This document shows positions 1,905 to 64,000 of a DNA stretch of 64,000 bases, one piece after another. This stretch comes from Escherichia phage vB_EcoM_CRP22. A model generated the notes under the pieces. That model ran no database searches and had not been told where the DNA came from. It was given only the letters and a program-made list of their open reading frames with translations. The position numbers and the translations under genes are program-made. Positions within the stretch are counted from its first letter, which is position 1; every line of letters starts with the position of its first letter. Location: sequence record OQ708377.1, one strand, 5' to 3'.

Positions 1905-2069
1905 CGTACAATTTCATAGTGTGGTATAGAGTAAGTTTTATTTCCAGATGACATAGCTAAATCTTCTTTAGTAGAGTTATTCAGTATTGCTTTACGAACA
2001 ATTTCTTTAAGTTTCATTTTCACTACCTTGTTTGGTTAAGAGGGGCTATCAAGTAACCCCTTCAAGATT

Positions 2070-2297
2070 TTACTCAGAATCCTCAGATTTCTTTTCAGTC
2101 TTCTTCGTTTTCTTTTCAGCTTTCTTCTCAACTTCTGGTTTTGATTCTACAGTAGCTTCAATAGCAATGTCCAGAAGTTTTGAAAGGTCATCTTTAAGAA
2201 CCGTTACAGGTTGTTCATTGTAGTAGTTCTTGTCAAGGTGCTCTTTCAGTTCGTTCAGAGAGCTAAAGCCGAATGGCTGGATAGGTGTCTTAATCAT
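2070..2297 (-). CDS. hypothetical protein, Lys/Glu-rich C-terminus
   Basis: 75-aa ORF in same orientation as neighbours. Confidence 0.35.
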   Translation of the reverse strand: MIKTPIQPFGFSSLNELKEHLDKNYYNEQPVTVLKDDLSKLLDIAIEATVESKPEVEKKAEKKTKKTEKKSEDSE

Positions 2298-2373
2298 TAC
2301 TTAGTTTCTCCATAAGCATCTTTCAAGATTGCCTTGTTAATCATTTCAGCGATTGCAAAACGAACACATACAG

Positions 2374-2907
2374 CTATAATTGTAGGTTGCATTCTTTACT
2401 TACCTCTTCAAGTTTAACCTCAGAATCCTTAAGTCGTTTCTTATGAACTCTGAATCTTATTAGTGAGATGATAATACCAGCTAAAGGGACAGCATACAAG
2501 TACCAAACATCATATACCTTTGCAGTAATTTGTGTAATGGTTAAGTCTTGAGCTATGGAACTGATTGCTGATACTGCCAGTAATGTTGCTAGGAAAAATG
2601 CCAGTACCATGACAATACTTAGACAACCTCTGGCACGGTGTTCATGCTTAATGCACTTATTCTTTTCGTCAACAACCCTGTTGTAGTCGTTTGTAAAGTC
2701 TCTGTAGAAGGCTTTCAAGTATTCTTGATTGTAGCCTTCAAAGCAACCTGTACCGTACCAATAATCACCACCAAAGTGTGCTATGATACCGGTATCTCCA
2801 TTTGGTTTGGTTACTCTTAAAGAGACGTGATGACCAGTCTTCTGGTAGTCTATTTTATATCTTTCTTCGTAAATCATTTCCCAACCCCTCTCAATCGTTT
2901 GTTCCAC
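2374..2907 (-). CDS. hypothetical membrane protein
   Basis: 177-aa ORF with two hydrophobic segments (LSIVMVLAFFLATLLAVSAISSIA and LYAVPLAGIIISLI). Confidence 0.45.
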   Translation of the reverse strand: MEQTIERGWEMIYEERYKIDYQKTGHHVSLRVTKPNGDTGIIAHFGGDYWYGTGCFEGYNQEYLKAFYRDFTNDYNRVVDEKNKCIKHEHRARGCLSIVMVLAFFLATLLAVSAISSIAQDLTITQITAKVYDVWYLYAVPLAGIIISLIRFRVHKKRLKDSEVKLEEVSKECNLQL

Positions 2908-3107
2908 TCAAGGTCAACAAGTCTTTGCAGGACTTTCCCTCTAGGTGTTACACCTTTTAAGTCTGCATCGTAGCAACGGTAAAAGTCACCTTCAGCGTGT
3001 TTACCATAGCATTTCCTGATATTCTGACTTCTACGATATTGTTCTAATAGAGACAGTCTGTAGTAATCTTCAACTGTAGTTAGTTTTTTCATTCTTTCAC
3101 CACGCAT
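2874..3107 (-). CDS. hypothetical protein
   Basis: 77-aa ORF overlapping downstream gene start. Confidence 0.35.
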   Translation of the reverse strand: MRGERMKKLTTVEDYYRLSLLEQYRRSQNIRKCYGKHAEGDFYRCYDADLKGVTPRGKVLQRLVDLEWNKRLRGVGK

Positions 3108-10014: not shown

Positions 10015-10091
10015 CTCTGTTTAGCTCAGCTTGGTAGAGCGTTCCGTTTGGGGCGGTAAGGCCGGAGGTTCAAGTCCTCCAACAGAGACCA
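10015..10091 (+). tRNA. tRNA-Pro (anticodon TGG)
   Basis: 7-bp acceptor ctctgtt/aacagag, D-arm GCTCAGCTTGGTAGAGC, T-arm ggagg-ttcaagt-cctcc, CCA encoded. Confidence 0.75.
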
Positions 10092-10098
10092 AATTAAT

Positions 10099-10176
10099 GT
10101 TCCAGTAGACAAAATGGTATAGTCACCACTCTTTCAAAGTGGATATTTGAGGGTTCAAATCCCTTCTGGAACGCCA
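10099..10176 (+). tRNA. tRNA-Glu (anticodon TTC)
   Basis: Acceptor gttccag/ctggaac, anticodon stem ccact/agtgg with loop ctTTCaa, T-loop ttcaaat, CCA. Confidence 0.75.
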
Positions 10177-10267
10177 GTTTTGACAGAAGACCAATTACAG
10201 CAAGTTTAATCTTATTCATCTGACACGAAATCGGACAAAGAAGAGATTTGGTCTGGTCATTAAGAAT

Positions 10268-10344
10268 TGCGGGTATAGAGAAAGGGCGTCTCACATGTCT
10301 CATTAGCATGGTATCGGCAGGTTCGACTCCTGCACCCGCCTCCA
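10268..10344 (+). tRNA. tRNA-Met (anticodon CAT)
   Basis: Acceptor tgcgggt/acccgcc, anticodon loop ctCATta, T-arm gcagg-ttcgact-cctgc, CCA. Confidence 0.65.
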
Positions 10345-10421
10345 ATTTTGCAGAAGACCGTATTCAGCAACAAACTACTTTTTGCGGATAAAAGAAAAAA
10401 CACGGTCTGGCAATGTATTAA

Positions 10422-10497
10422 GGTTAGGAAGCACATAAGGTATGTGCGGTCGCCTGTTAAGCGAATGGCACAGGGTTCGAATCCCTGACTAACCGCA
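10422..10497 (+). tRNA. tRNA-Asn (anticodon GTT)
   Basis: Anticodon loop ctGTTaa, T-arm caggg-ttcgaat-ccctg; acceptor has one mismatch. Confidence 0.6.
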
Positions 10498-10506
10498 AAA
10501 TTAAAT

Positions 10507-10594
10507 GTGTCGTTATCCCGTAGATGGTAGCGGTGGGGACTGTAAATCCCTTGTCATTGAGACTCGGTAGGTTCGACTCCTACACGGCACACCA
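10507..10594 (+). tRNA. tRNA-Tyr (anticodon GTA), long variable arm
   Basis: Acceptor gtgtcgt/acggcac, anticodon stem gggga/tccct with loop ctGTAaa, long extra arm, T-arm gtagg-ttcgact-cctac, CCA. Confidence 0.7.
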
Positions 10595-10616
10595 ACACTT
10601 AGCGAGATACTTAGTT

Positions 10617-11045
10617 ATGAGAGATGAAGTATACAAATCACAACTTGGTATGAGTTTAGGAACTGCACAAAACAGACTAGTAAAAGATTTGCTATTCGAT
10701 TTTATATGTAAAACAAATCAAAATAGATGTTTTCAGTGCGGAAAAGAAATGACTAGGGATGATTTCTCCATCGAGCATAAGGTTCCGTGGAGACATAGTG
10801 AAAACGCAAAAGAGCTTTTCTTTTCACTGGATAATATCTCTTATAGTCATCTTAAATGTAATATGAAAGCAGCAAGACCAGCACAGATAAGTGAAAGAAA
10901 ACATAAAACAGTTGAACACGGAACTGCGTATAGCTATTACAAAGGCTGTAGATGCGAGGAGTGTAGGTTGGCTAAGAATGCTGCTAGCAGGAAGAACTAT
11001 AGCCCAGAAAGGCGTAGGAAGAAGTATTTAAGAAATGGCACATAG
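10617..11045 (+). CDS. HNH endonuclease (free-standing, inside tRNA array)
   Basis: 143 aa from internal ATG; CFQCGKEM...EHKVPW...HLKCN zinc-binding HNH-like motifs; the track ORF start at 10524 overlaps tRNA-Tyr and is rejected. Confidence 0.7.
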   Translation: MRDEVYKSQLGMSLGTAQNRLVKDLLFDFICKTNQNRCFQCGKEMTRDDFSIEHKVPWRHSENAKELFFSLDNISYSHLKCNMKAARPAQISERKHKTVEHGTAYSYYKGCRCEECRLAKNAASRKNYSPERRRKKYLRNGT

Positions 11046-11049
11046 TTTT

Positions 11050-11125
11050 GGGGTATTAGTTTAGACGGTTAAAATACGGGATTGTCTCTCCTGAGCCGCG
11101 AGTTCGATTCTCGCATACCTCGCCA
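11050..11125 (+). tRNA. tRNA-Asp (anticodon GTC)
   Basis: Acceptor ggggtat/atacctc, anticodon stem cggga/tcctg with loop ttGTCtc, T-arm gcgag-ttcgatt-ctcgc, CCA. Confidence 0.7.
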
Positions 11126-11273
11126 ATTTTGAGAGGGCTATTTAGCCCCTCCCTTAAAGAGTTATTACGAGTATTCTTTAAAGGAGCAGAAGACCAAATT
11201 CAGCAAGTTACTTAAAATTTCAAGCCAATTTAATTTTGAAAAATTTAAAACTTGGTCTGGCTTAACAAATTTA

Positions 11274-11404
11274 CAGAAGACCGTTTACAGCAAAACTTAA
11301 ACAATCTATTTCTCGGTAAAGAAAAGGCGAAGGTTCGATTCCTTCACTCGGCAGATGTCGAGTTGGTGTAATGGTAGCACTTAAGATGATAAACAACGGT
11401 CTGG
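11274..11404 (+). ncRNA. Candidate structured ncRNA: circularly permuted tRNA-like module enclosed by an 8-bp stem (possible Y-RNA/YrlA-like element)
   Basis: Linear order is stem strand agaccgtt, T-arm gaagg-ttcgatt-ccttc, acceptor 3' strand actcggc, 4-nt loop, acceptor 5' strand gtcgagt, D-arm gtgt-aatggta-gcac, stem strand aacggtct; the acceptor halves pair over 7 bp. Confidence 0.35.
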
Positions 11405-11405
11405 T

Positions 11406-11551
11406 AATTATCTTTGCAGTAGCTTATGTGGCTAATTATGTCGTCCCATGAGTGCCGATGAATTTCCTTAGCATGATTCTAGATTAGCTTAATAGGGAAT
11501 GACTCTACAGACCCTTTAGCAAGGTCTGCGTAGGTTACTGCAAAGATAATT
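11406..11551 (+). ncRNA. Candidate structured RNA domain closed by a 16-bp stem
   Basis: aattatctttgcagta (11406-11421) is the perfect reverse complement of tactgcaaagataatt (11535-11550), enclosing ~112 nt with an internal cagacc...ggtctg hairpin. Confidence 0.3.
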
Positions 11552-11555
11552 TAAT

Positions 11556-11631
11556 GGAAGTGTAGCAGAATGGTGATGCGGCAGACTTTTAATCTGACAG
11601 GCGATGGGTTCGAATCCATCCACTTCTACCA
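11556..11631 (+). tRNA. tRNA-Lys (anticodon TTT)
   Basis: Acceptor ggaagtg/cacttct, anticodon loop ctTTTaa, T-loop ttcgaat, CCA. Confidence 0.6.
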
Positions 11632-11635
11632 ATAT

Positions 11636-11712
11636 GGTTCAGTCGCAGATAAGGTAATGCAGGGGTCTCATAAGCCCTATGAATGTGGGTTCGATTCCCA
11701 TCTGAACCTCCA
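11636..11712 (+). tRNA. tRNA with anticodon CAT (Met, initiator-like, or Ile2)
   Basis: Acceptor ggttcag/ctgaacc, anticodon loop ctCATaa on a stem with three consecutive G-C pairs, T-loop ttcgatt, CCA. Confidence 0.7.
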
Positions 11713-11714
11713 AT

Positions 11715-11790
11715 GCTGTGAAAGCACATATGGATGTGCATTCGGCTGATAACCGAAAGGAAGAAGGTTCGAATCCTTCTCACAGTACCA
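11715..11790 (+). tRNA. tRNA-Ile (anticodon GAT)
   Basis: Acceptor gctgtga/tcacagt, anticodon stem ttcgg/ccgaa with loop ctGATaa, T-arm gaagg-ttcgaat-ccttc, CCA. Confidence 0.7.
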
Positions 11791-11805
11791 ATTTCAATAA
11801 AGTTG

Positions 11806-11834
11806 TTGACATTGAGATGTGACCACTTTATAGT
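11806..11834 (+). promoter_or_regulatory. sigma70-like promoter inside the tRNA array
   Basis: TTGACA - 17 nt - TATAGT, preceded by A-rich tract aaagttg. Confidence 0.5.
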
Positions 11835-12126
11835 AACTAAAATACTTCATAATATGTATAATTCAAACACCAATACATGAGTATTAGACGTAATGCAATG
11901 TGGGGAAATTTGTTGTACATATTCTGAATAGTTTTCGTTGCGTAGCGTCTATTTTGCAAATTTAAAATAAATGCAAACGACAATGTTTTTCTGGCAGTAG
12001 CTTGATAGGCTAAACACCAGTGAGGTCTTCCAATCCCTCATCAAAGAATTTGGCGTACTCGCCCACGGTATGATTAATAAGGTGGGCATCTTTAAGGGTT
12101 TTTAAGAGAGTCTTTAAAGATAATTA

Positions 12127-12208
12127 CGGGGCGTATCTCAGCTGTCTTCTAAACAGCCGTTAACCGAGTAAGTGGAGTATGCGGGTTCGAGTCCTGCCGC
12201 CTCGACCA
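12127..12208 (+). tRNA. Atypical tRNA-like gene, possibly Arg (anticodon TCT); D-arm not resolvable
   Basis: Acceptor cggggcg/cgcctcg, T-arm gcggg-ttcgagt-cctgc, CCA; clean stem gctgt/acagc with loop ctTCTaa but no canonical D-arm by eye. Confidence 0.4.
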
Positions 12209-12222
12209 ATTTTGGAGAAATC

Positions 12223-12570
12223 ATGAAAACTTGTATTAGGTGCAAACTTAGCAAGGATGAAAATGATTTCTACATGAAAGATGGTAGAAGAACTCATTCA
12301 TACTGTAAAAAGTGTGTTAATGAGCAAACCATAGAAAGACAAAGAGCACTTAAACTCTCAGCTATTGAGTACAAAGGTGGTGTTTGTCAGGATTGTGGTA
12401 AAAGGTATCATCCAGCAGTGTATGACTTCCATCATTTGAATCCTTCAGAGAAAGATTTTAACATTGCTCATAGAAGAAGTCTTAAGTTCTCTCAGGAGCT
12501 TAAGAACGAACTTGACAAATGTGTTTTGCTATGTTCAAATTGCCATAGGGTAAGACATGCAAAGTATTAG
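12223..12570 (+). CDS. HNH endonuclease (free-standing, inside tRNA array)
   Basis: 115 aa from internal ATG (MKTCIRCK...); CxxC pairs and FHHLNP...LLCSNCHRVRH HNH motif; the track start at 12172 overlaps the preceding tRNA-like gene. Confidence 0.7.
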   Translation: MKTCIRCKLSKDENDFYMKDGRRTHSYCKKCVNEQTIERQRALKLSAIEYKGGVCQDCGKRYHPAVYDFHHLNPSEKDFNIAHRRSLKFSQELKNELDKCVLLCSNCHRVRHAKY

Positions 12571-12707
12571 TTAGCAGATTGCTTAGACGACCTTATCGGG
12601 TCTCCGTGTAAGGAGGTGGTCTGTATCTCATGTTTTCCAGAACATGTAAATAATCTGAGAAGGGGCTTTACAGTGTTGAGATAATACGGTAAGCTTCGAA
12701 TTATAAT

Positions 12708-12790
12708 ATGGGACGATGTTAAGACTCTAAGGCATGAGCAACGGCTTCCAACACCGTTTCAAAGGGGTTCAACTCCTCCGTCCCATGCCA
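12708..12790 (+). tRNA. Atypical tRNA-like gene with an apparent 9-nt anticodon loop
   Basis: Perfect acceptor atgggac/gtcccat, T-loop ttcaact, CCA; best anticodon helix aacgg/ccgtt encloses cttccaaca (9 nt); D-region longer than canonical. Confidence 0.4.
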
Positions 12791-12803
12791 AAGTCTTATT
12801 AGG

Positions 12804-12893
12804 GGTAGGTAGCGGCTAATGGTAGCCAAACTGTCTTGAAAACAGTTGCCACTGTAGAGATACGGTGAGGGTTCGACTCCTTTACTTACCGCC
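12804..12893 (+). tRNA. tRNA-Ser (anticodon TGA), long variable arm
   Basis: Acceptor ggtaggt/acttacc, anticodon stem actgt/acagt with loop ctTGAaa, long variable arm, T-loop ttcgact. Confidence 0.7.
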
Positions 12894-13148
12894 TAATAAG
12901 ATTTAAAGCCAAGCTTCATTCGGATGTTGCTTTGGTATCCCTCGTGTATTGTCGTACACACTGATAAAGCACCTGGTAGGTGTCACGGAGAAGAGATAAT
13001 ATCAAGCTCTCCAAAGGTTCTAGTCACCGGATTAAACAAGACTATGCAAAGACCAATTTAGGTCTTTTTAGAGGGCTTCTAAGGTTATTACAGCTTGTTG
13101 TGGAACCTTGTTGCTTAGGTTCTTAGAAGTTCTCTAAAAAGATTTAAT

Positions 13149-13225
13149 GCACCTATAGCCCAATTGGTAGAGGCAGCAGACTTAGAATCTGTTCAGTGTG
13201 AGTTCGAATCTCTCTAGGTGTACCA
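13149..13225 (+). tRNA. tRNA with anticodon TAG (Leu-type), short variable arm
   Basis: Acceptor gcaccta/taggtgt, anticodon stem gcaga/tctgt with loop ctTAGaa, T-loop ttcgaat, A73, CCA. Confidence 0.6.
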
Positions 13226-13232
13226 AATTAAT

Positions 13233-13308
13233 GCAGGTGTAGCAAAATGGTTATGCGGCTGACTCTTAATCAGTAAGACGATGGGTTCAATTCCCTCCAC
13301 CTGTACCA
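13233..13308 (+). tRNA. tRNA-Lys (anticodon CTT)
   Basis: Acceptor gcaggtg/cacctgt, anticodon stem gctga/tcagt with loop ctCTTaa, T-loop ttcaatt (weak T-stem), CCA. Confidence 0.55.
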
Positions 13309-13314
13309 AACATT

Positions 13315-13390
13315 GGGGTCATAGTTTATATGGTTAAAATTCGAGTTTTGCAAACTTGGGAACTGAGTTCAATTCTCAGTGACTCCACCA
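13315..13390 (+). tRNA. tRNA-Ala (anticodon TGC)
   Basis: Acceptor ggggtca/tgactcc, anticodon stem cgagt/acttg with loop ttTGCaa, T-arm ctgag-ttcaatt-ctcag, CCA. Confidence 0.7.
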
Positions 13391-13396
13391 ATTAGT

Positions 13397-13471
13397 GCAT
13401 CCATAGTTTAAACGGGAAAATTACAGTCTTCCAAACTGAGGTTGAGGGTTCGATTCCCTCTGGATGCTCCA
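13397..13471 (+). tRNA. tRNA-Gly (anticodon TCC)
   Basis: Acceptor gcatcca/tggatgc, anticodon loop ctTCCaa, T-arm gaggg-ttcgatt-ccctc, CCA. Confidence 0.7.
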
Positions 13472-13478
13472 AATTAAT

Positions 13479-13555
13479 GCTGCTTTCGTATAATTGGCTA
13501 TTACACATCCCTTGTAAGGATGGAAATGCAGGTTCGAGTCCTGTGAGCAGCACCA
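13479..13555 (+). tRNA. tRNA-Thr (anticodon TGT)
   Basis: Acceptor gctgctt/gagcagc, anticodon stem catcc/ggatg with loop ctTGTaa, T-arm gcagg-ttcgagt-cctgt, CCA. Confidence 0.7.
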
Positions 13556-13651
13556 ATTCAGAGGTCAAGTGAAAGACCGCTTTGAGTCAACTGAAGACCG
13601 TAACAAATCCCACGGAGTTGAGTTAGCGGCACAACTTCAGACCTCTTTCAT

Positions 13652-13726
13652 ACTCGCTTAGTTTATATGGTAAAACATCAACCTTACAAGATGAAGAAAA
13701 AGGTTCAAGTCCTTTAGTGAGTACCA
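13652..13726 (+). tRNA. tRNA-Val (anticodon TAC)
   Basis: Acceptor actcgct/agtgagt, D-stem gttt/aaac, anticodon loop ctTACaa, T-arm aaagg-ttcaagt-ccttt, CCA. Confidence 0.65.
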
Positions 13727-13727
13727 T

Positions 13728-13805
13728 GTTCCAGTATCCCAATTGGCAGAGGATGCAAGCTCAAACCTTGTATTAGTGACGGTTCGAATCCGTCTTGGAA
13801 CACCA
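13728..13805 (+). tRNA. tRNA with anticodon CAA (Leu-type), short variable arm
   Basis: Acceptor gttccag/ttggaac, anticodon stem gcaag/cttgt with loop ctCAAac, T-arm gacgg-ttcgaat-ccgtc, A73, CCA. Confidence 0.6.
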
Positions 13806-13810
13806 ATTTT

Positions 13811-13885
13811 GCAGGATTAGTTCAAATGGATAGAGCAACAGTCTACGAAGCTGTTAATAGGGGTTCGAATCCCTTATCCTGCGCC
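13811..13885 (+). tRNA. tRNA-Arg (anticodon ACG)
   Basis: Perfect acceptor gcaggat/atcctgc, D-arm TAGTTCAAATGGATAGAGC, anticodon loop ctACGaa, T-loop ttcgaat, CCA. Confidence 0.75.
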
Positions 13886-13892
13886 AATTAAA

Positions 13893-13969
13893 TAGGGGAT
13901 TAGTTTACAAGGTTAAAACCTCGGTCTTTGAAATCGAAGAAGTTGGTTCAATTCCAACATCCCCCGCCA
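13893..13969 (+). tRNA. tRNA-Gln (anticodon TTG)
   Basis: Acceptor aggggat/atccccc (1-72 mismatch), D-stem gttt/aaac, anticodon stem tcggt/atcga with loop ctTTGaa, T-arm gttgg-ttcaatt-ccaac, CCA. Confidence 0.65.
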
Positions 13970-13971
13970 AT

Positions 13972-14050
13972 GCTCCATTACTCCAATTGGCAGAGAGGCC
14001 AGACTTAAAATCTGTGTTATGTATCGGTTCGAATCCGATATGGAGTACCA
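13972..14050 (+). tRNA. tRNA with anticodon TAA (Leu-type)
   Basis: Acceptor gctccat/atggagt, anticodon loop ctTAAaa, T-arm atcgg-ttcgaat-ccgat, A73, CCA; D-arm parse ambiguous. Confidence 0.55.
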
Positions 14051-14055
14051 AATTT

Positions 14056-14131
14056 AGCGGTATAGCATAACTGGCAATGCAGCAGTCTCTGAAGCTGTCT
14101 TATTAAGGTTCAAATCCTTATGCCGCTGCCA
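14056..14131 (+). tRNA. tRNA-Gln (anticodon CTG)
   Basis: Acceptor agcggta/tgccgct, D-stem gcat/atgc, anticodon stem gcagt/gctgt with loop ctCTGaa, T-loop ttcaaat, CCA. Confidence 0.65.
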
Positions 14132-14162
14132 CTTCTAAGGGTTCTTACGAGAGTCCTTAAAT

Positions 14163-14238
14163 GTGGCCTTATCATAAAAGGTAATGACCCATGCTGTGAA
14201 CATGGTCTATACGGGTTCAAATCCCGTAGGTCACCCCA
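14163..14238 (+). tRNA. tRNA-His (anticodon GTG)
   Basis: Acceptor gtggcct/aggtcac, anticodon stem ccatg/catgg with loop ctGTGaa, T-arm acggg-ttcaaat-cccgt, CCA. Confidence 0.7.
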
Positions 14239-14243
14239 ATTTA

Positions 14244-14320
14244 TAGTCCAAGTAGCTTATATGGTTAAAGCGCGTGTCTGAAAAACATGAGAAGAGGGTT
14301 CAAATCCCACTGGACTACCA
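14244..14320 (+). tRNA. tRNA-Phe (anticodon GAA)
   Basis: Acceptor tagtcca/tggacta, D-stem gctt/aagc, anticodon stem cgtgt/acatg with loop ctGAAaa, T-loop ttcaaat. Confidence 0.6.
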
Positions 14321-14337
14321 ATTTCAAAGGTGCTTAA

Positions 14338-15071
14338 TGAAAGAGATGACAGAACAAGGTAAGGAGATTTTTAATCTCTTAAAAACCGGTAGAGGGTTTT
14401 CTAATCCCCTTATTACTGGTGCAGCAGTTCTCGGTGGAACCGTAGCTACCTCTACATCACTTGTAAACTCTATTAGCTCTGTAACAGACCCTACAATAAA
14501 GGATAAACTTGTTGCTGCTGGACTTACAACAGTTCTGCTTAACAGCTTTACAACGAGTCTGACAAGCACTACATCAACCACTAAAACACCGACAGATTAC
14601 GGTCAAAAGTCCATTGATGAGTTTTCATCACGTATGCAGGTAGCAAAAGGATACTCTAATGTTATGGGTGCAGCAGGAGAGCAAGTTGGTTGTACACCAT
14701 TTAGTGGTATTATGGGTGTTGCTACAGAGTATGGTCAAAAAGCTATTGACACAATTAACAGTGCACTAGACGGTGTTAATGATGTATTAAGTGACTTACA
14801 AGATGCTATTGATAAAGGTCTTGATACTATTTCTGATTTAGCTAACCAAGCTGTTAGTAAGATTAATGAAGGTATTTCGAAGATTACAGCTTATGCAGAT
14901 GAAGTTGTGCAGATGATTGAAGAAGAAGCTGCCCTTATTGCAGAGTACCTTAAAACGAATATCAATGGGTTCTTAGCAGGTATCTTACCAGACTGGTTTG
15001 ACGATGCTTGTAAAACTGGTGTGATTGATACTATTGCAACACCAGAAATGAAGAACGCATTACAGAAATAA
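14338..15071 (+). CDS. hypothetical Ser/Thr-rich protein encoded inside the tRNA array
   Basis: 244 aa from internal ATG (MKEMTEQGKEIF...); the track start at 14274 overlaps tRNA-Phe; long S/T-rich region followed by a helical C-terminus. Confidence 0.45.
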
Positions 15072-15072
15072 T

Positions 15073-15165
15073 GGAAGATTAACCCTAAAAGGTAAGGGAG
15101 CAGTTTGCTAAACTGCCAGTAGCTGAGAAATCGGTGTACCAGTTCAAGTCTGGTATCTTCCTCCA
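15073..15165 (+). tRNA. tRNA-Ser (anticodon GCT), long variable arm
   Basis: Perfect acceptor ggaagat/atcttcc, anticodon stem gcagt/actgc with loop ttGCTaa, long variable arm, T-arm accag-ttcaagt-ctggt, CCA. Confidence 0.75.
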
Positions 15166-15169
15166 ATTT

Positions 15170-15245
15170 GAATCCGTGACAGAAATGGCTATGTGCCTGT
15201 CTGCAAAACAGGTTTATAAGGGTTCGAGTCCCTTCGGATTCTCCA
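15170..15245 (+). tRNA. tRNA-Cys (anticodon GCA)
   Basis: Perfect acceptor gaatccg/cggattc, anticodon stem cctgt/acagg with loop ctGCAaa, T-arm aaggg-ttcgagt-ccctt, CCA. Confidence 0.75.
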
Positions 15246-58000: not shown

Positions 58001-60235
58001 ATGATTAAGACAATTAAAAAATCAAACGGTACAGTAGTAAGCTTTGACCCAGAAAGACTGAATAAGTGGGCATCATGGGCAGATAAACGTGGAATTATCT
58101 GGTCAGAAGTCACTATGGAAGCTATGAAACGTGTCTATGAAGGTTGCACTACAAAAGAGATGCACCAAGCCATGATTGATGTTTGTGTTGATAAGCAAAC
58201 TCAAGAGTACTCAGATATGGCTGGACGGCTACTTCTGGGAATTATCTACAAAGAATCCTTTGGAGGCTTTACTAAGGTTCCTACGCTGGTTACCTTCGTT
58301 AAAAATATGGAGAGAGCAGGACTTTGGGAGAAGATGGACTATTCACAGGAAGAGCTTGAATACCTGCAAGGGTACATTGTGCACTCAAAAGATATCTCTT
58401 ACGGTTATGCAGTACTGAAACAGTTTAGAGACAAGTATGGTATCCGTGATATTAAAACGGGAAGACTTTTTGAGTCACCACAGTTTATGTTTATGGGTAT
58501 GGCTATGAAAGCCTTCGAGAAGCAACCAAAGCACCGTAGACTGCAAGATGTTATCAAGCTGTACACTTACCTATCTGACCTGAAGATTAATGCTCCTACG
58601 CCTTATCTGAATGGTTTAAGAGCTACTAAATCAGGTTATGCGTCATGCTGTTTGATTAAGGCAAATGATACTGCTGAATCTCTAGGTATTGCTGCAAAGG
58701 TTGCTTATGATATGACTACAAAGCAAGCTGGTATTGGGATGCTGATGGAGACTCGCACTATTGGTGATGGTATCCGTCAAAATACTATTGAGCATATGGG
58801 TAAACTACCTTATTACAAGCTTGTACGTTCATCTGTAGAGGCAAACAAACAAAAGAGCCGTGGTGGTTCAGCTAACAACTTCTACACCGCTCTAGACCCG
58901 CAGATTGAAGATTTACTGCGTTTGAAGCACCCTACAACGGTTCCTTCGAAACGTATTAACGAGATGGACTACTCATTTGGTACAAATGATTATTTCTGGC
59001 AGTGTGTTCAATATGATACAGACTGGTTGCTATTCTCTTACAAGGATGCACCAAAGCTCTATGACATGTTCTACACAGCATCTGCTGATGAGTTTGCTAT
59101 GGCAGTTGGTCACGCAGTGCATTCAGGTGTTAAGCACAGACGAGTAAAGGCTCGTGAAATTGCTAAACTGTTTATCCAGCAGCGTTATGCAACAGGCCGT
59201 GTGTACCCATTCTTCACAAATAATGCAAACACACATACACCATTTAAAGAGCCTTTGAAGATGTCAAATCTTTGTATGGAAATTGTGTTGCCAGTGTACG
59301 GTTTTGAGAAAGAGACAGACCTTTACAGAGATGATGCTGTGAAAGAGGATGGTGAGGTAGCTCTTTGCTTCCTAGCTAGTTTGGTTGCAGGGAGAATTTC
59401 AGAAGATGAATACGCTGACGTTGCTTATTATGCTCTTGCAATGGTTGACTCCGTTATTGACCTTATGGATTATCCGTATCCGTCGATGTGTAACCATGTT
59501 CAGAAGCGTCGTTCTGTTGGGATTGGCCTTACAAATGTGGCTCATTACCTTGCAAAAAACTACGTGAACTACTCTTCAAGAGCAGGTAAGACGAAGCTTC
59601 ATGAGCTTGCTGAAATGCACTCTTACTACTTACACGAAGCTTCTTTAAGACTTGCTAAAGAACGTGGTGTACCTGAGTATATGCAGTTCACTAAGTATCC
59701 TGAAGGTTGGGTTCCTCCGAAGACAGCTAACAGGAAGATTGATGAGAAGCATGATGCAAAACTTCGTTATGATTGGGATGACTTAGCACAACGTATTAAA
59801 GAAAATGGTGGAATCCGCAACTCTGTATTAGAAGCTTACATGCCTAATGAGAGTTCTTCACTGGCAACTAATACGACAAACGGCTTGTACCCAATTCGTG
59901 ACTTTATTTTAACTAAAAAGTCTGCAACTGGTAACGTACTGTTTATTGTTCCAGATTACGAAGAGTTGAAGTATGTCTATGAAATTGCTTGGGATATTGA
60001 CACCTTTGACCTAATTGATTGCTATGCAATTGTTCAAAAGTTCACTGGTCAAGCTATCTCTTCAGATTTCTATGTTGACTACGCAAAAGCTAAGAAGGTA
60101 TCATTGGCTCAAGCTTTGAAGTACATGATTTATGCCAACTCAGTAGGTATGAAAACCATGTACTACCTTAACAGTCGCATCGGTGTAGGTAAATCTGCAC
60201 TGCAAGATGCTTATTGCGAGGGTTGTGGTGTTTAG
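58001..60235 (+). CDS. nrdA: ribonucleoside-diphosphate reductase large subunit (class I, NrdA)
   Basis: 744 aa; N-terminal ATP-cone-like region, C-terminal tail ending CEGCGV with Cys pair; followed by nrdB. Confidence 0.9.
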   Translation: MIKTIKKSNGTVVSFDPERLNKWASWADKRGIIWSEVTMEAMKRVYEGCTTKEMHQAMIDVCVDKQTQEYSDMAGRLLLGIIYKESFGGFTKVPTLVTFVKNMERAGLWEKMDYSQEELEYLQGYIVHSKDISYGYAVLKQFRDKYGIRDIKTGRLFESPQFMFMGMAMKAFEKQPKHRRLQDVIKLYTYLSDLKINAPTPYLNGLRATKSGYASCCLIKANDTAESLGIAAKVAYDMTTKQAGIGMLMETRTIGDGIRQNTIEHMGKLPYYKLVRSSVEANKQKSRGGSANNFYTALDPQIEDLLRLKHPTTVPSKRINEMDYSFGTNDYFWQCVQYDTDWLLFSYKDAPKLYDMFYTASADEFAMAVGHAVHSGVKHRRVKAREIAKLFIQQRYATGRVYPFFTNNANTHTPFKEPLKMSNLCMEIVLPVYGFEKETDLYRDDAVKEDGEVALCFLASLVAGRISEDEYADVAYYALAMVDSVIDLMDYPYPSMCNHVQKRRSVGIGLTNVAHYLAKNYVNYSSRAGKTKLHELAEMHSYYLHEASLRLAKERGVPEYMQFTKYPEGWVPPKTANRKIDEKHDAKLRYDWDDLAQRIKENGGIRNSVLEAYMPNESSSLATNTTNGLYPIRDFILTKKSATGNVLFIVPDYEELKYVYEIAWDIDTFDLIDCYAIVQKFTGQAISSDFYVDYAKAKKVSLAQALKYMIYANSVGMKTMYYLNSRIGVGKSALQDAYCEGCGV

Positions 60236-60290
60236 TTTTAATAACTATGAGGGTCGTAAAAGACCCTCTAAAATTAACTTTGGAGAGACC

Positions 60291-60548
60291 ATGAAAGATT
60301 TAATAGAAAAACATGAGCGACCTATATACTTGCTCCACAAGCCTCGGAAAACGATGTACTATGTGAGTAGCACAGATATGATGATAAAACAAAAGGATGA
60401 CTCATGGGTTGCTGGTATCTCTTACATCTCTACAGCAGATGGTAAAATCTACGCAAGACCTTATGAGATGTTCAACAAAGAAAATTGGGAAGTTTTAGAC
60501 AGAAAACAAGCCTTAGAAATGATAAAGAAAGGAGAAATCACGCTATGA
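60291..60548 (+). CDS. hypothetical small protein between nrdA and nrdB
   Basis: 85 aa from internal ATG after GGAGAG; overlaps nrdB start by ATGA. Confidence 0.35.
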   Translation: MKDLIEKHERPIYLLHKPRKTMYYVSSTDMMIKQKDDSWVAGISYISTADGKIYARPYEMFNKENWEVLDRKQALEMIKKGEITL

Positions 60549-61618: not shown

Positions 61619-61860
61619 TGACTTATGTAATTTACTCCAAAACTGGATGCCCTCAATGTGAGACTGCAAAGAATTTTGCAAAAGCTCGTGGTATTGACCA
61701 TGTTGTGAGAATGTTGGGGCAGGATTATGAACTGTCAGACCTGATTGATATTGCACAGATGCCAGTTCGTCAGATGCCATTCATCATGAAAACTGATGGT
61801 CAAAATCTAAAACCTGTTGGAATGCTACAGAATTTCATGGCAGAGGTGAATAATGCTTAA
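61618..61860 (+). CDS. glutaredoxin-like redoxin
   Basis: 80 aa; active site CPQC near N-terminus (KTGCPQCETAK), thioredoxin-fold size. Confidence 0.8.
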   Translation: MTYVIYSKTGCPQCETAKNFAKARGIDHVVRMLGQDYELSDLIDIAQMPVRQMPFIMKTDGQNLKPVGMLQNFMAEVNNA

Positions 61861-62059
61861 ACGCCTTTGGGAAGGCTTGGTTGTTGATGCACCAGCTATT
61901 GTGATTGGTATGCTTATTGTTAACCTATTTACTGACTTTGAACAAGGTTCATTGTTTGGAGCCATGTTACTATGGGTTATCTTCGAAATATTAGAGATAC
62001 AGCTAGGTATCACTGAAAAACTAAGAGAACTCTTTGCGAAGTTTTCTAAAAAGATTTAA
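61853..62059 (+). CDS. hypothetical small membrane protein
   Basis: 68 aa with hydrophobic segments. Confidence 0.3.
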   Translation: MLKRLWEGLVVDAPAIVIGMLIVNLFTDFEQGSLFGAMLLWVIFEILEIQLGITEKLRELFAKFSKKI

Positions 62060-62066
62060 AATGAAA

Positions 62067-62088
62067 GGGTCTCTTCGGAGACCTTTTT
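62067..62088 (+). terminator. Rho-independent terminator
   Basis: gggtctc-ttcg-gagacc followed by TTTTT. Confidence 0.65.
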
Positions 62089-62107
62089 AGCATGTAAAGG
62101 GGCAATA

Positions 62108-63304
62108 ATGAACAAAGTACAGATTATTAAAAAGAATGGCTCACTCGAAGAACCTGATATCAAAAAAGTTTTAGCAGCAGTCACAAAGTCAGCTAACAGG
62201 GTTGGATATAAAGAACTCCCACCAGATGTTACCCAAGCTCTTGAGTCAGCATTTATGAGGATTCTGGTAAAATCTACTAAACAGAATAATTTGCTAATTT
62301 CTGTAAATGATATTCACAGTATTGTTGAGGGTGCTTTGGCAGAAGTCAATCACGAGATTTATGAGTCTTACTCAACATATAGAAATTACCGTAAAGAAGT
62401 TGCTCAAAATTGGGATGAGCTTTACCAGAAGACCAAAGACACACTCTTCTTAGGTGACAGAGAGAATGCTAACTTTGATAGCAGTTTAATTTCTACAAAA
62501 GGTTCAATTATTCGTGGTTATCTGACTAAAGAAATCTTTAAACAGTACCACTTAACACCAGAGGAACTTGAAGCCATTGAAAAAGGGTTTATCTACATCC
62601 ATGACTTAAGAGACCTAATTTTTGGTGGTATCAACTGTTGCCTGTTCGACATTGGTAAAGTCCTGAAAGGTGGCTTTGAAATGTCCGGCATCGAATATTG
62701 TGAACCAAAGTCTGTGCTGTCGGCATTACAGGTTATTGGTGACGTAGTTCTTTCAGCAACTGCACAGCAATTTGGTGGATTTACTTTAGCAGAGATTGAT
62801 AAGGTACTTGTACCGTATGCTAAGAAGTCTCTACGCTATCATGCTGAGAAAGCAGCATCTTATGGTATTCCTAAAGAGCATTACCACAATTATGTCATGG
62901 AGCAGCTACAGATTGAGCTAACTCAAGGTTTCCAGTCACTTGAAATGAAACTAAATACTGTACCTTGTAGTCGTGGGGATTTTGCATTCACAACTTTGAC
63001 ATTCGGGTTACTTGACTCAGATATGTCCAATGAAGATAACCGACTGCAATATATAATTGCAAGTACTCTCCTAGATGTTCGTATGAATGGACAAGGTAAG
63101 AGCAAAAAGCCTGTTGTATTCCCTAAACTGGTTTATATTTATGACCAGAAGAGACATAATGAGAATATCTGTCAAGGACACCTGTACAGTAAAGCCATTG
63201 AGTGTTGCTCTAAAGCAATGTATCCAGATTTCTTAAGTGTATCTGGTCATGGTGCTGTAGCAGAGGCTTTTGAGCGTTCTGGCAAGGTAATTTCACCGAT
63301 GGGT
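62108..63304 (+). CDS. nrdD: anaerobic ribonucleoside-triphosphate reductase (NrdD), exon 1 only
   Basis: ATP-cone N-terminus; IHDLRDLIFGGINCCLFDIGKVLKGGFE and ...SPMG align with T4 NrdD as I recall it, where the protein continues CRSFLS; here the frame stops right after PMG at an intron-like sequence. Confidence 0.8.
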
Positions 63305-64000
63305 TAACAAGCTCTATAGCTCATCTAAAACGTGCCTAAACAGGGAAACTCTACAGGTGTAGACAATCCTGTGCTAAATGATGTACGATGTAAGAAACTA
63401 TATAAATAGGAGTATTACATGCCAAATTATCATGTTACTGAGGACGGAAGAGTCTTTAGGAAAAATGGTGTAGAACTTACGCAGTGGAAATCCAACACTG
63501 GTTATATGAAAGTAAGGTTTTATGGAAGGAAGAATCGTGACATGTATGTCCATAGGTTAGTTGCTGAAAAGTATGTACCTAACCCTAACAATCTTCCAAT
63601 TGTAAAACACAAAGATGATAACAAACTGAACAACCATGCTTCTAACTTAGAATGGGGAACTCATTCTGAGAATGTTAAAGAGGGTTATGAAAACGGTTGC
63701 TACAAGTTTTGTAAGCGTTCATATGCTGTGAAGGCTACACACAAAGTGACAAAAGAAGTTATTGTTGCTAAGTCAATACGAGAGTTATCCAACATACTCG
63801 GATATAATCGCAAGACTATCTCTTCAATATTGAAGGGTGTAAAAGAGCATAATAACTTTGAACATGAATTTGAGTACATTTAAATGCCGAACGACTAACC
63901 GTGATGAATGTAGCGGTGTAGGGTCAAGCGACTCGAAATGGTACGCTACTTAGAAATAAGTAGAAGATATAGTCTGGACTTACTGGTGACAGTAAGCAGC
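63305..64000 (+). mobile_element. Group I self-splicing intron in nrdD carrying an HNH endonuclease ORF; extends beyond window end
   Basis: 5' part ctaaacagggaaactctacaggtgtagacaatcctgtgctaaat closely resembles the T4 td intron core as recalled (CUAAACGGGGAACCUCU...UAGACAAUCCCGUGCUAAAU); 3' part has gggtcaagcgactcgaaa and atagtctgg; no downstream exon within window. Confidence 0.7.
63419..63883 (+). CDS. intron-encoded HNH homing endonuclease
   Basis: 154 aa; YVHRLVAEKYVPNP...VKHKDDNKLNNHASNLEWGTHSEN HNH motif; ATG after AGGAG; lies inside the intron. Confidence 0.75.
   Translation: MPNYHVTEDGRVFRKNGVELTQWKSNTGYMKVRFYGRKNRDMYVHRLVAEKYVPNPNNLPIVKHKDDNKLNNHASNLEWGTHSENVKEGYENGCYKFCKRSYAVKATHKVTKEVIVAKSIRELSNILGYNRKTISSILKGVKEHNNFEHEFEYI

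Follow-up and report, generated by a model that had tools for sequence, protein, structure and literature searches.

Why does the nrdD reading frame of Escherichia phage vB_EcoM_CRP22 (sequence record OQ708377.1) stop partway through its protein, and what separates that stop from the rest of the gene? Our analysis covered a window of 64,000 nucleotides of this record, together with the related phage loci that carry the sequence beyond its end. Very probably, a self-splicing and mobile group I intron, 742 nt long and of the IA2 type known from phage T4, splits nrdD in this Felix O1-like phage. The genome paper of Felix O1 gives introns as absent from that phage (PMC3185647). A paper on phage UAB_Phi87 describes a "split nrdD interrupted by a homing endonuclease" and credits the observation to Moreno Switt et al. 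2013 (PMC4837284), whose own text states only that insertions of homing endonucleases are frequent within conserved genes or between them, and leaves nrdD unnamed (PMC3728262). In the searchable literature we found no paper that identifies a group I intron here or that reports splicing or cleavage data for the element. The GenBank record of phage Meda already joins the two exons.

The window is 96-99% identical to many phages in GenBank. Its region from base 62000 to base 64000 matches 314 phage records, nearly all of them from Felixounavirus, the genus of Felix O1-like myoviruses, at 95-97% identity; the hosts of these Felixounavirus records are Salmonella, Escherichia, and Shigella. Ahead of nrdD lie nrdA (58001-60235), a small ORF, nrdB, a glutaredoxin gene, a gene for a small membrane protein, and a terminator hairpin, an order that constitutes the usual nucleotide-metabolism block. 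The putative terminator (62068-62083, plus strand) is a GC-rich hairpin followed by TTTTT that likely ends the nrdA-nrdB-grx unit and that the records of Meda and wV8 likewise label as a terminator; our scan called it on the minus strand, and the TTTTT follows on the plus strand. A sigma-70 promoter scan of 61800-64000 returned 6 sites against 6.7 in shuffled sequence, and we therefore claim no promoter for either nrdD or the endonuclease gene.

Exon 1 of nrdD occupies 62108-63304 on the plus strand, and its 399 codons encode the ATP-cone and the N-terminal half of the class III ribonucleotide reductase barrel. A first-pass annotation, made from the sequence, had noticed that the frame halts directly after VISPMG, and the open reading frame at 62108-63307 indeed encodes 399 amino acids that end in GKVISPMG, followed by TAA. 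Because its product matches the Pfam ATP-cone and only positions 1-250 of the 562-position NRDD profile, this frame represents solely the N-terminal part of NrdD. The halt had also been placed at a point where T4 NrdD continues, and the T4 protein reads SPMG-C290-RSFL across it; the NrdD of phage wV8, whose gene is intron-less, likewise runs on as SPMG/CRAFL (the slash marks the junction here and below). Exon 2, as found in relatives, contributes NRDD positions 264-560 and a Gly_radical domain. With this second exon in place, the protein has an ATP-cone, an NRDD domain, the radical cysteine, and a C-terminal Gly_radical domain, as a class III NrdD should, and its matches to NrdD structures span the junction (PDB 9D3X, E=4.7e-78; T4 NrdD 1H78, E=3.7e-75). 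The junction falls between Gly399 and Cys400, and Cys400 aligns with Cys290 of T4 NrdD (SPMGCRSFL). We take Cys290 to be the thiyl-radical cysteine described in structural work on T4 NrdD.

The insert begins immediately after the GGT codon of Gly399, and its first three bases are the TAA that stops the exon 1 frame. Bases 1-696 of the 742, from P1 through P9 of the IA2-like structure described below, are present in the window (63305-64000, plus strand). By comparison with phage NJ12, whose intron is 99.4% identical, the window stops 45 nt short of the 3' splice site, so that P9.1, P9.2, and the terminal G are absent from it; the same comparison bears out the earlier statement that exon 2 lies outside the window. 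For the 3' splice site, P9.1, P9.2, and exon 2 we accordingly rely on phages that are 96-99% identical; the boundaries were taken from the whole locus in Shigella phage Tf (L001; 96.7% identical). The Tf insert measures 742 nt, is preceded by U, and has G as its last base, and the Tf exon 2 opens with TGT AGA GCA TTT TTA (CRAFLSPYHNEYGEE) and extends to the nrdD stop. Exactly these 742 nt are missing from wV8, fjerdesal, and PHB11, which read ...CCGATGGGT/TGYAGAGC..., and in Tf, Meda, NJ12, and Tribble the intron ends in CAACAAG/UGU. In these relatives, which supply the sequence beyond the window, the insert thus has a terminal G and its exact excision restores the frame. Locating exon 2 and confirming in-frame ligation had been proposed as a check on the intron, and the near-identical phages allow it in silico: the joined exons of Tf give a NrdD of 714 aa that is identical to the uninterrupted wV8 protein at 697 of 714 positions. 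The first in-frame ATG of exon 2 lies 31 codons past the junction, and a C-terminal piece translated separately would therefore lack Cys400.

The first-pass annotation had reported group I core elements in the sequence after the nrdD stop and had recommended a scan with the Rfam Intron_gpI model, and both the elements and a covariance-model match are there. Scanning in E-value mode places Intron_gpI at 63816-63996 with 38.1 bits (E=4.6e-8) and, over the P3-P6 part, at 63340-63413 with 16.5 bits; the nrdD locus is the sole Intron_gpI signal in the 64 kb. At the Rfam gathering threshold, the whole window yields tRNAs only. The window score of 38.1 bits falls below the RF00028 gathering score of 50 because the model does not bridge the 465-nt ORF in P6 and because P9.1 and P9.2 are cut off. 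Since the intron is visible in E-value mode only, we took a natural ORF-less allele for the threshold test. This 316-nt intron of phage SPJ41 is ~97% identical to the window intron outside the ORF and reaches 54.3 bits, which exceeds the 50-bit gathering score. The T4 nrdD intron scores 105 bits against the same model, and the nrdD intron of Mosigvirus G2285 has no Rfam match at E<=0.001, yet it aligns clearly.

We drew the secondary structure by hand with P1, P3, P4, P5, P6, P6a, the P7 pseudoknot, P7.1, P7.2, P8, P9, P9.1, P9.2, and P10, all on the plus strand. P1 (63298-63325), read from the sequence, pairs the exon GAUGGGU at 63298-63304 with the guide GCUCAUC at 63319-63325, and the last U of the Gly399 codon (U63304) forms the splice-site U.G pair with G63319. 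Just ahead of this guide, CUAUA (63314-63318) can pair with UGUAG of exon 2 to form P10; P2 is absent. The first half of the core, within 63331-63374, consists of the 5' strand of P3 (63331-63336), P4 (63340-63345 with 63367-63372), P5 (63350-63354 with 63359-63363), and the 5' strand of P6, GC (63373-63374). The 5' strand of P6a, GAUGUA (63380-63385), and the P6b hairpin AUGUAA/UUACAU (63388-63393 with 63415-63420) follow. The second half, within 63886-63996, holds the 3' strand of P6 (63886-63887), P7 (63893-63897 with 63970-63974), P7.1 (63898-63902 with 63913-63917), P7.2 (63921-63925 with 63930-63934), the 3' strand of P3 (63940-63945), P8 (63946-63952 with 63957-63963), and P9 with its GUGA loop (63979-63985 with 63990-63996). 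The extra helices P7.1 and P7.2, which lie between P7 and the 3' strand of P3, place the intron with the IA2 introns of the T4 type.

For covariation, we aligned eight related introns with their ORFs excised: those of SPJ41, Tf, phi92, Vequintavirus YP-6, and Vibrio phage F89, the nrdD introns of T4 and Mosigvirus G2285, and the terL intron of Aeromonas phage 2L372D. Across these eight, 90.7% of cells are paired, a share that drops to 36-42% in controls with the 3' strands shifted by 1-3 columns, and 37 of the 76 pairs show compensatory changes on both sides. None of 500 shuffles reached the observed value on four of five measures; on the remaining one, which counts further pair types, 8 of 500 did. 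P3 and P4 are paired throughout (100%), P5, P6a, P7.1, and P9 in 96-98%, all of them with covariation; P7.1, at 97.5%, has three covarying pairs. P1 is 91% paired, P7 is invariant, and P10 and P9.1 are weaker (65-69%). The P3/P7-pseudoknot core (P3-P4-P5-P6 and P7-P3'-P8-P7') is therefore present with covariation, and the unconstrained minimum free energy fold of the ORF-less allele in RNAfold recovers P3 through P9.2. Among four intron-bearing alleles, 7 of the 277 positions outside the ORF vary, and the five that can be placed (53, 99, 102, 111, and 684) all lie outside the predicted helices.

Inside the intron, an ORF at 63419-63883 (plus strand) encodes a 154-aa, I-HmuI-like HNH homing endonuclease. 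The first-pass annotation had placed an HNH ORF here and had specified HNH rather than GIY-YIG. Both points hold: the ORF is a Pfam HNH_3 match (E=2.6e-10; 40.2 bits against a Pfam cut-off of 24.8) with the catalytic His and Asn positions present, whereas I-TevII, from the nrdD intron of T4, is a GIY-YIG enzyme (PMC2988022). The protein is built of three modules, an N-terminal DNA-binding sheet, the HNH core, and a C-terminal NUMOD1-like helix-turn-helix, the last of which Pfam finds as a weak NUMOD1 tail. Residues 3-145 align with I-HmuI (PDB 1U3E, E=4.5e-10), and the catalytic positions HKD..NN..N..N are kept relative to that structure (HKDDNKLNN...NLEW...EN). A tblastn search finds thousands of phage homologues; past the near-identical Felixounavirus copies, the best among the matches listed is the ORF of phage A135, which lies at the same nrdD site and is 47% identical.

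The endonuclease gene is intact and under purifying selection. Five Felix-type alleles differ at 58 of 465 sites, 47 of which are third codon positions, and all 10 differences between the window and Tf are silent. The ORF is looped out of P6, and its final codons double as the 3' strand of P6a (63875-63880). Its ribosome-binding site, AGGAG (63408-63412), sits in the P6b loop, and the A and U of its start codon are paired in the stem. This hairpin may restrict translation of the endonuclease, a suggestion only, given that P6b is weak (-8.1 kcal/mol, z=-1.5).

We infer splicing, endonuclease activity, the cleavage site, and homing from the sequence, and the proposed course of events is as follows. 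As the pre-mRNA folds, the end of exon 1 (GAUGGGU) would pair with the guide GCUCAUC in P1, and an exogenous guanosine bound at P7 would attack after U63304. CUAUA would then align UGUAG of exon 2 through P10, and the freed exon 1 would attack after the terminal G. Ligation at GGU/UGU, with the predicted junction ...AUGGGU/UGUAGAGC..., would restore the 714-aa NrdD. The 154-aa HNH protein of the I-HmuI type would be made from its own AGGAG ribosome-binding site and, in a mixed infection, would cut or nick intron-less nrdD near the point of insertion and probably to its exon 2 side. An intron-bearing genome would then serve as the repair template, and the intron would be copied along with a short stretch of exon 2.

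Three allele states, empty, intron with the HNH gene, and ORF-less intron, coexist within one genus. The intron and its HNH gene occur together in about 59 records; as estimated from an even sample of the match list, roughly 30 have the ORF-less intron and >100 an intron-less nrdD. The endonuclease gene has been deleted in two ways: SPJ41, EC6, and D1-2 share an in-frame loss of 426 nt that keeps ATG CCA AAT and the last 10 codons, and RPN213 has an intron shorter by a further 24 nt (292 nt, against 742 nt with the ORF), from which the ribosome-binding site and start codon are removed. Phage ST11 has lost the element imprecisely, retaining the intron's TAA and lacking the first 9 nt of exon 2 (Cys-Arg-Ala), so the codon for the catalytic cysteine is gone. 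This coexistence of empty, full, ORF-deleted, and imprecisely deleted alleles is the usual life cycle of a homing endonuclease. Exon 2 reads TGTAGAGCRTTTTTATCA...GAA in every intron-bearing allele and TGYAGAGCYTTCTTATCY...GAG in intron-less ones, with silent differences at +9, +12, +18, and +33 that track the presence of the intron, whereas the 45 nt upstream of the insertion are essentially alike in all alleles. Such a one-sided pattern would be expected from co-conversion, from recognition of a site to the exon 2 side, or from the two together, and it could alternatively reflect shared ancestry of the intron-bearing lineage.

Three rival explanations are disfavoured by these sequences. The one that survives best, though we judge it very unlikely, is that the element has decayed, with splicing that is poor or dependent on factors from host or phage, an nrdD that is effectively a pseudogene, and an HNH gene that persists as a selfish passenger. 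Such a reading would accommodate the window score below the Rfam gathering score and the apparent dispensability of nrdD, to which the imprecise deletion in ST11 points. It is difficult to reconcile, however, with a ribozyme that is more conserved than the ORF it carries (7/277 against 58/465 variable sites) and whose five placeable variable sites avoid the helices, or with exons 1 and 2 that are both open and ~97% identical to intron-less NrdD. Moreover, P7, J8/7, and J6/7 are invariant across eight distant introns that include the T4 nrdD intron, for which self-splicing has been demonstrated experimentally.

Even less probable, in our estimation, is a gene in pieces, in which a free-standing HNH gene has split nrdD and the two polypeptides reassemble without RNA splicing. 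Most GenBank records do show two nrdD CDSs flanking an HNH gene, the wording "split gene interrupted by a homing endonuclease" (PMC4837284) describes the locus in these terms, and there is a precedent in mobE within nrdA of Aeromonas phage Aeh1 (Friedrich et al. 2007, cited in PMC3653736). Against this stand the complete, covarying group I core of the insert, with U at -1 and G as its last base, and the survival of the insert at 316 nt after the HNH gene has been deleted. Exon 2 has neither a start codon nor a ribosome-binding site at the junction, and its independent translation would forfeit Cys400. An intein or programmed translational bypass with no RNA intron, conceivable because ribonucleotide reductase genes often host inteins (PMC3653736), is refuted by the TAA immediately after Gly399, by the lack of intein blocks in an insert that is a group I ribozyme, and by an HNH ORF that is fused to neither exon frame, with a start codon and a ribosome-binding site of its own.

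The self-splicing intron thus remains the explanation we favor, and it has consequences for annotation: where there is one spliced gene, dozens of Felixounavirus records show a pair of "nrdD" fragments with a stray HNH gene. The absence of introns does not hold as a statement on the genus Felixounavirus. The element is widespread and already partly annotated, and it is a typical mobile intron of the T4 type, although the T4 nrdD intron itself occupies another site. It adds one more group I intron positioned exactly at a codon of the catalytic site in a ribonucleotide reductase. The genus also offers a compact natural series for the life cycle of a homing endonuclease, comprising the empty site, the intron with its endonuclease gene, two independent deletions of that gene, and one imprecise loss that kills nrdD.

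Among known systems, the introns most directly comparable in position are the nrdD introns of phi92 (Justusliebigvirus), YP-6 (Vequintavirus), A135, and Vibrio phage F89, which have the identical MG/CR insertion site, the same P1 guide, and the same architecture. A135, named as a Campylobacter phage, is rV5-like, as is YP-6. A homologous HNH ORF occupies the same position in P6 of the YP-6 and F89 introns, and the phi92 intron carries no ORF; the GenBank record of phi92 annotates a "spliced variant". Despite the common site, the introns of phi92, the rV5-like phages, and F89 share only 73-79% core identity with the Felix-type intron, and the phage genera that host them are unrelated. A related intron also occurs in terL of Aeromonas phage 2L372D, immediately before the Walker B motif. 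When these related introns and the T4 td intron are compared, all pairs fall at 70-86% core identity with no clear grouping, and core identity is therefore uninformative as to the nearest relative.

The encoded endonuclease has its closest characterized counterpart in I-HmuI, from the DNA polymerase intron of phage SPO1, to which it matches over nearly its full length and with the same three-module layout, although identity is low, I-HmuI is longer (174 aa against 154 aa), and the target genes differ. I-HmuI and I-TwoI of the Twort nrdE intron are both HNH nicking enzymes. Like the Felix-type ORF, each is encoded by a group I intron in a phage gene of nucleotide metabolism or replication. The T4 td intron, which encodes I-TevI, resembles the Felix-type intron in core sequence (75% identity) and in having its ORF looped from P6; it differs in possessing a P2, in its guide, in its GIY-YIG endonuclease, and in the gene it interrupts.

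The T4 nrdD (sunY) intron shares the host gene, an IA2 core with P7.1 and P7.2, 77% core identity, and a P1 guide of GCUCAU followed by UAAAA, and work by Shub and Michel reportedly describes the sunY intron without a P2. It interrupts codon Y180 (AYE-Y-EVNT) after an exon that ends in UAUGAGU, ~120 codons upstream of MG/CR in Felix numbering, and it is longer (1033 nt against 742 nt), with the I-TevII ORF located 3' of P9 rather than in P6 like the Felix-type HNH ORF. Among the introns compared, the GCUCAU guide, the UAAAA that follows it, and the missing P2 are common to the nrdD introns of the two sites alone, and the target hexamers, AUGAGU and AUGGGU, are one transition apart. These features raise the tentative and, in our view, rather doubtful possibility that the nrdD introns at both sites form one lineage, which would have relocated inside nrdD to another sequence that matches its guide. 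Transposition would in that case have been mediated by reverse splicing, and each copy would then have received a different endonuclease gene, a GIY-YIG gene 3' of P9 in one and an HNH gene in P6 in the other. If true, the two sites would preserve a naturally occurring case of ectopic intron transposition directed by the guide, with independent endonuclease invasion afterwards, and the guide held in common with the T4 sunY intron at another site of the same gene provides a small lead on how such introns spread to new sites.

The HNH gene carried by the group I intron in nrdD has been deleted within the intron on two independent occasions, one seen in phage SPJ41 and the other in RPN213. The SPJ41-type intron (2501-2816 of locus L003), which is also found in EC6 and D1-2, has lost 426 nt of the HNH gene in-frame, so that only its start and final 10 codons remain. 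The RPN213 intron (607-898 of locus L014) is 292 nt long, 24 nt below the SPJ41 type, and both the ribosome-binding site and the start codon are gone. The ribozyme is intact in both HNH-deleted types.

In Salmonella phage ST11 (L016, MF370225), the nrdD intron has been lost imprecisely. Near position 606, its nrdD reads ...ATGGGT TAA|TTTTTATCA..., so that the first three bases of the intron, a stop codon, are retained, and exon 2 lacks its initial 9 nt, among them the codon for the catalytic Cys. Barring an assembly error, the ST11 nrdD is a pseudogene.

Directly upstream of the HNH ribosome-binding site, window positions 63401-63408 read TATAAATA, which is the T4 late-promoter consensus. Because the same place reads TATACAAC in the HNH-containing intron of Shigella phage Tf and TATATAGA in SPJ41, the match is probably due to chance.

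Elsewhere in the window, 23 tRNA genes that reach the Rfam gathering score are densely clustered on the + strand (10015-15242); the lowest-scoring of them has 33.2 bits (12804-12891). The E-value mode of Rfam adds a further tRNA match of 31.2 bits (12127-12205) and a weak and partial tmRNA-like match (11937-12125). Such a tRNA cluster is typical for Felix O1-like phages. A small ORF between nrdA and nrdB (60207-60548), annotated as hypothetical in relatives, encodes 113 aa from its first ATG, or 85 aa if the start is at 60291, which follows a GGAG.

Interrupted genes are found in other phages as well. Aeromonas phage 2L372D (L010, NC_048769) carries, at about 2392-2708, a group I intron that has no ORF and belongs to the family of the Felix-type intron; here it splits the large terminase gene (...NHQG / LQYSFVGFDELTHF) directly before the Walker B motif, and the record annotates "terminase large subunit" as two CDSs. 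Vibrio phage F89 g2 (L007, OZ195773) has a second, upstream nrdD interruption with a 309-aa HNH gene (224-1384), at which the first exon piece terminates in ...LQFGKL*; no Intron_gpI match at E<=0.001 was found for this insert, which may be either an intron or a free-standing endonuclease gene. The Mosigvirus vB_EcoM_G2285 (L006, MK327933) has an nrdD intron at the T4 site (1990-3040). Its short core pieces share 87% identity with the Felix-type intron, yet it gave no Rfam match at E<=0.001, and its P7.2 and P8 elements are not the same as in T4.
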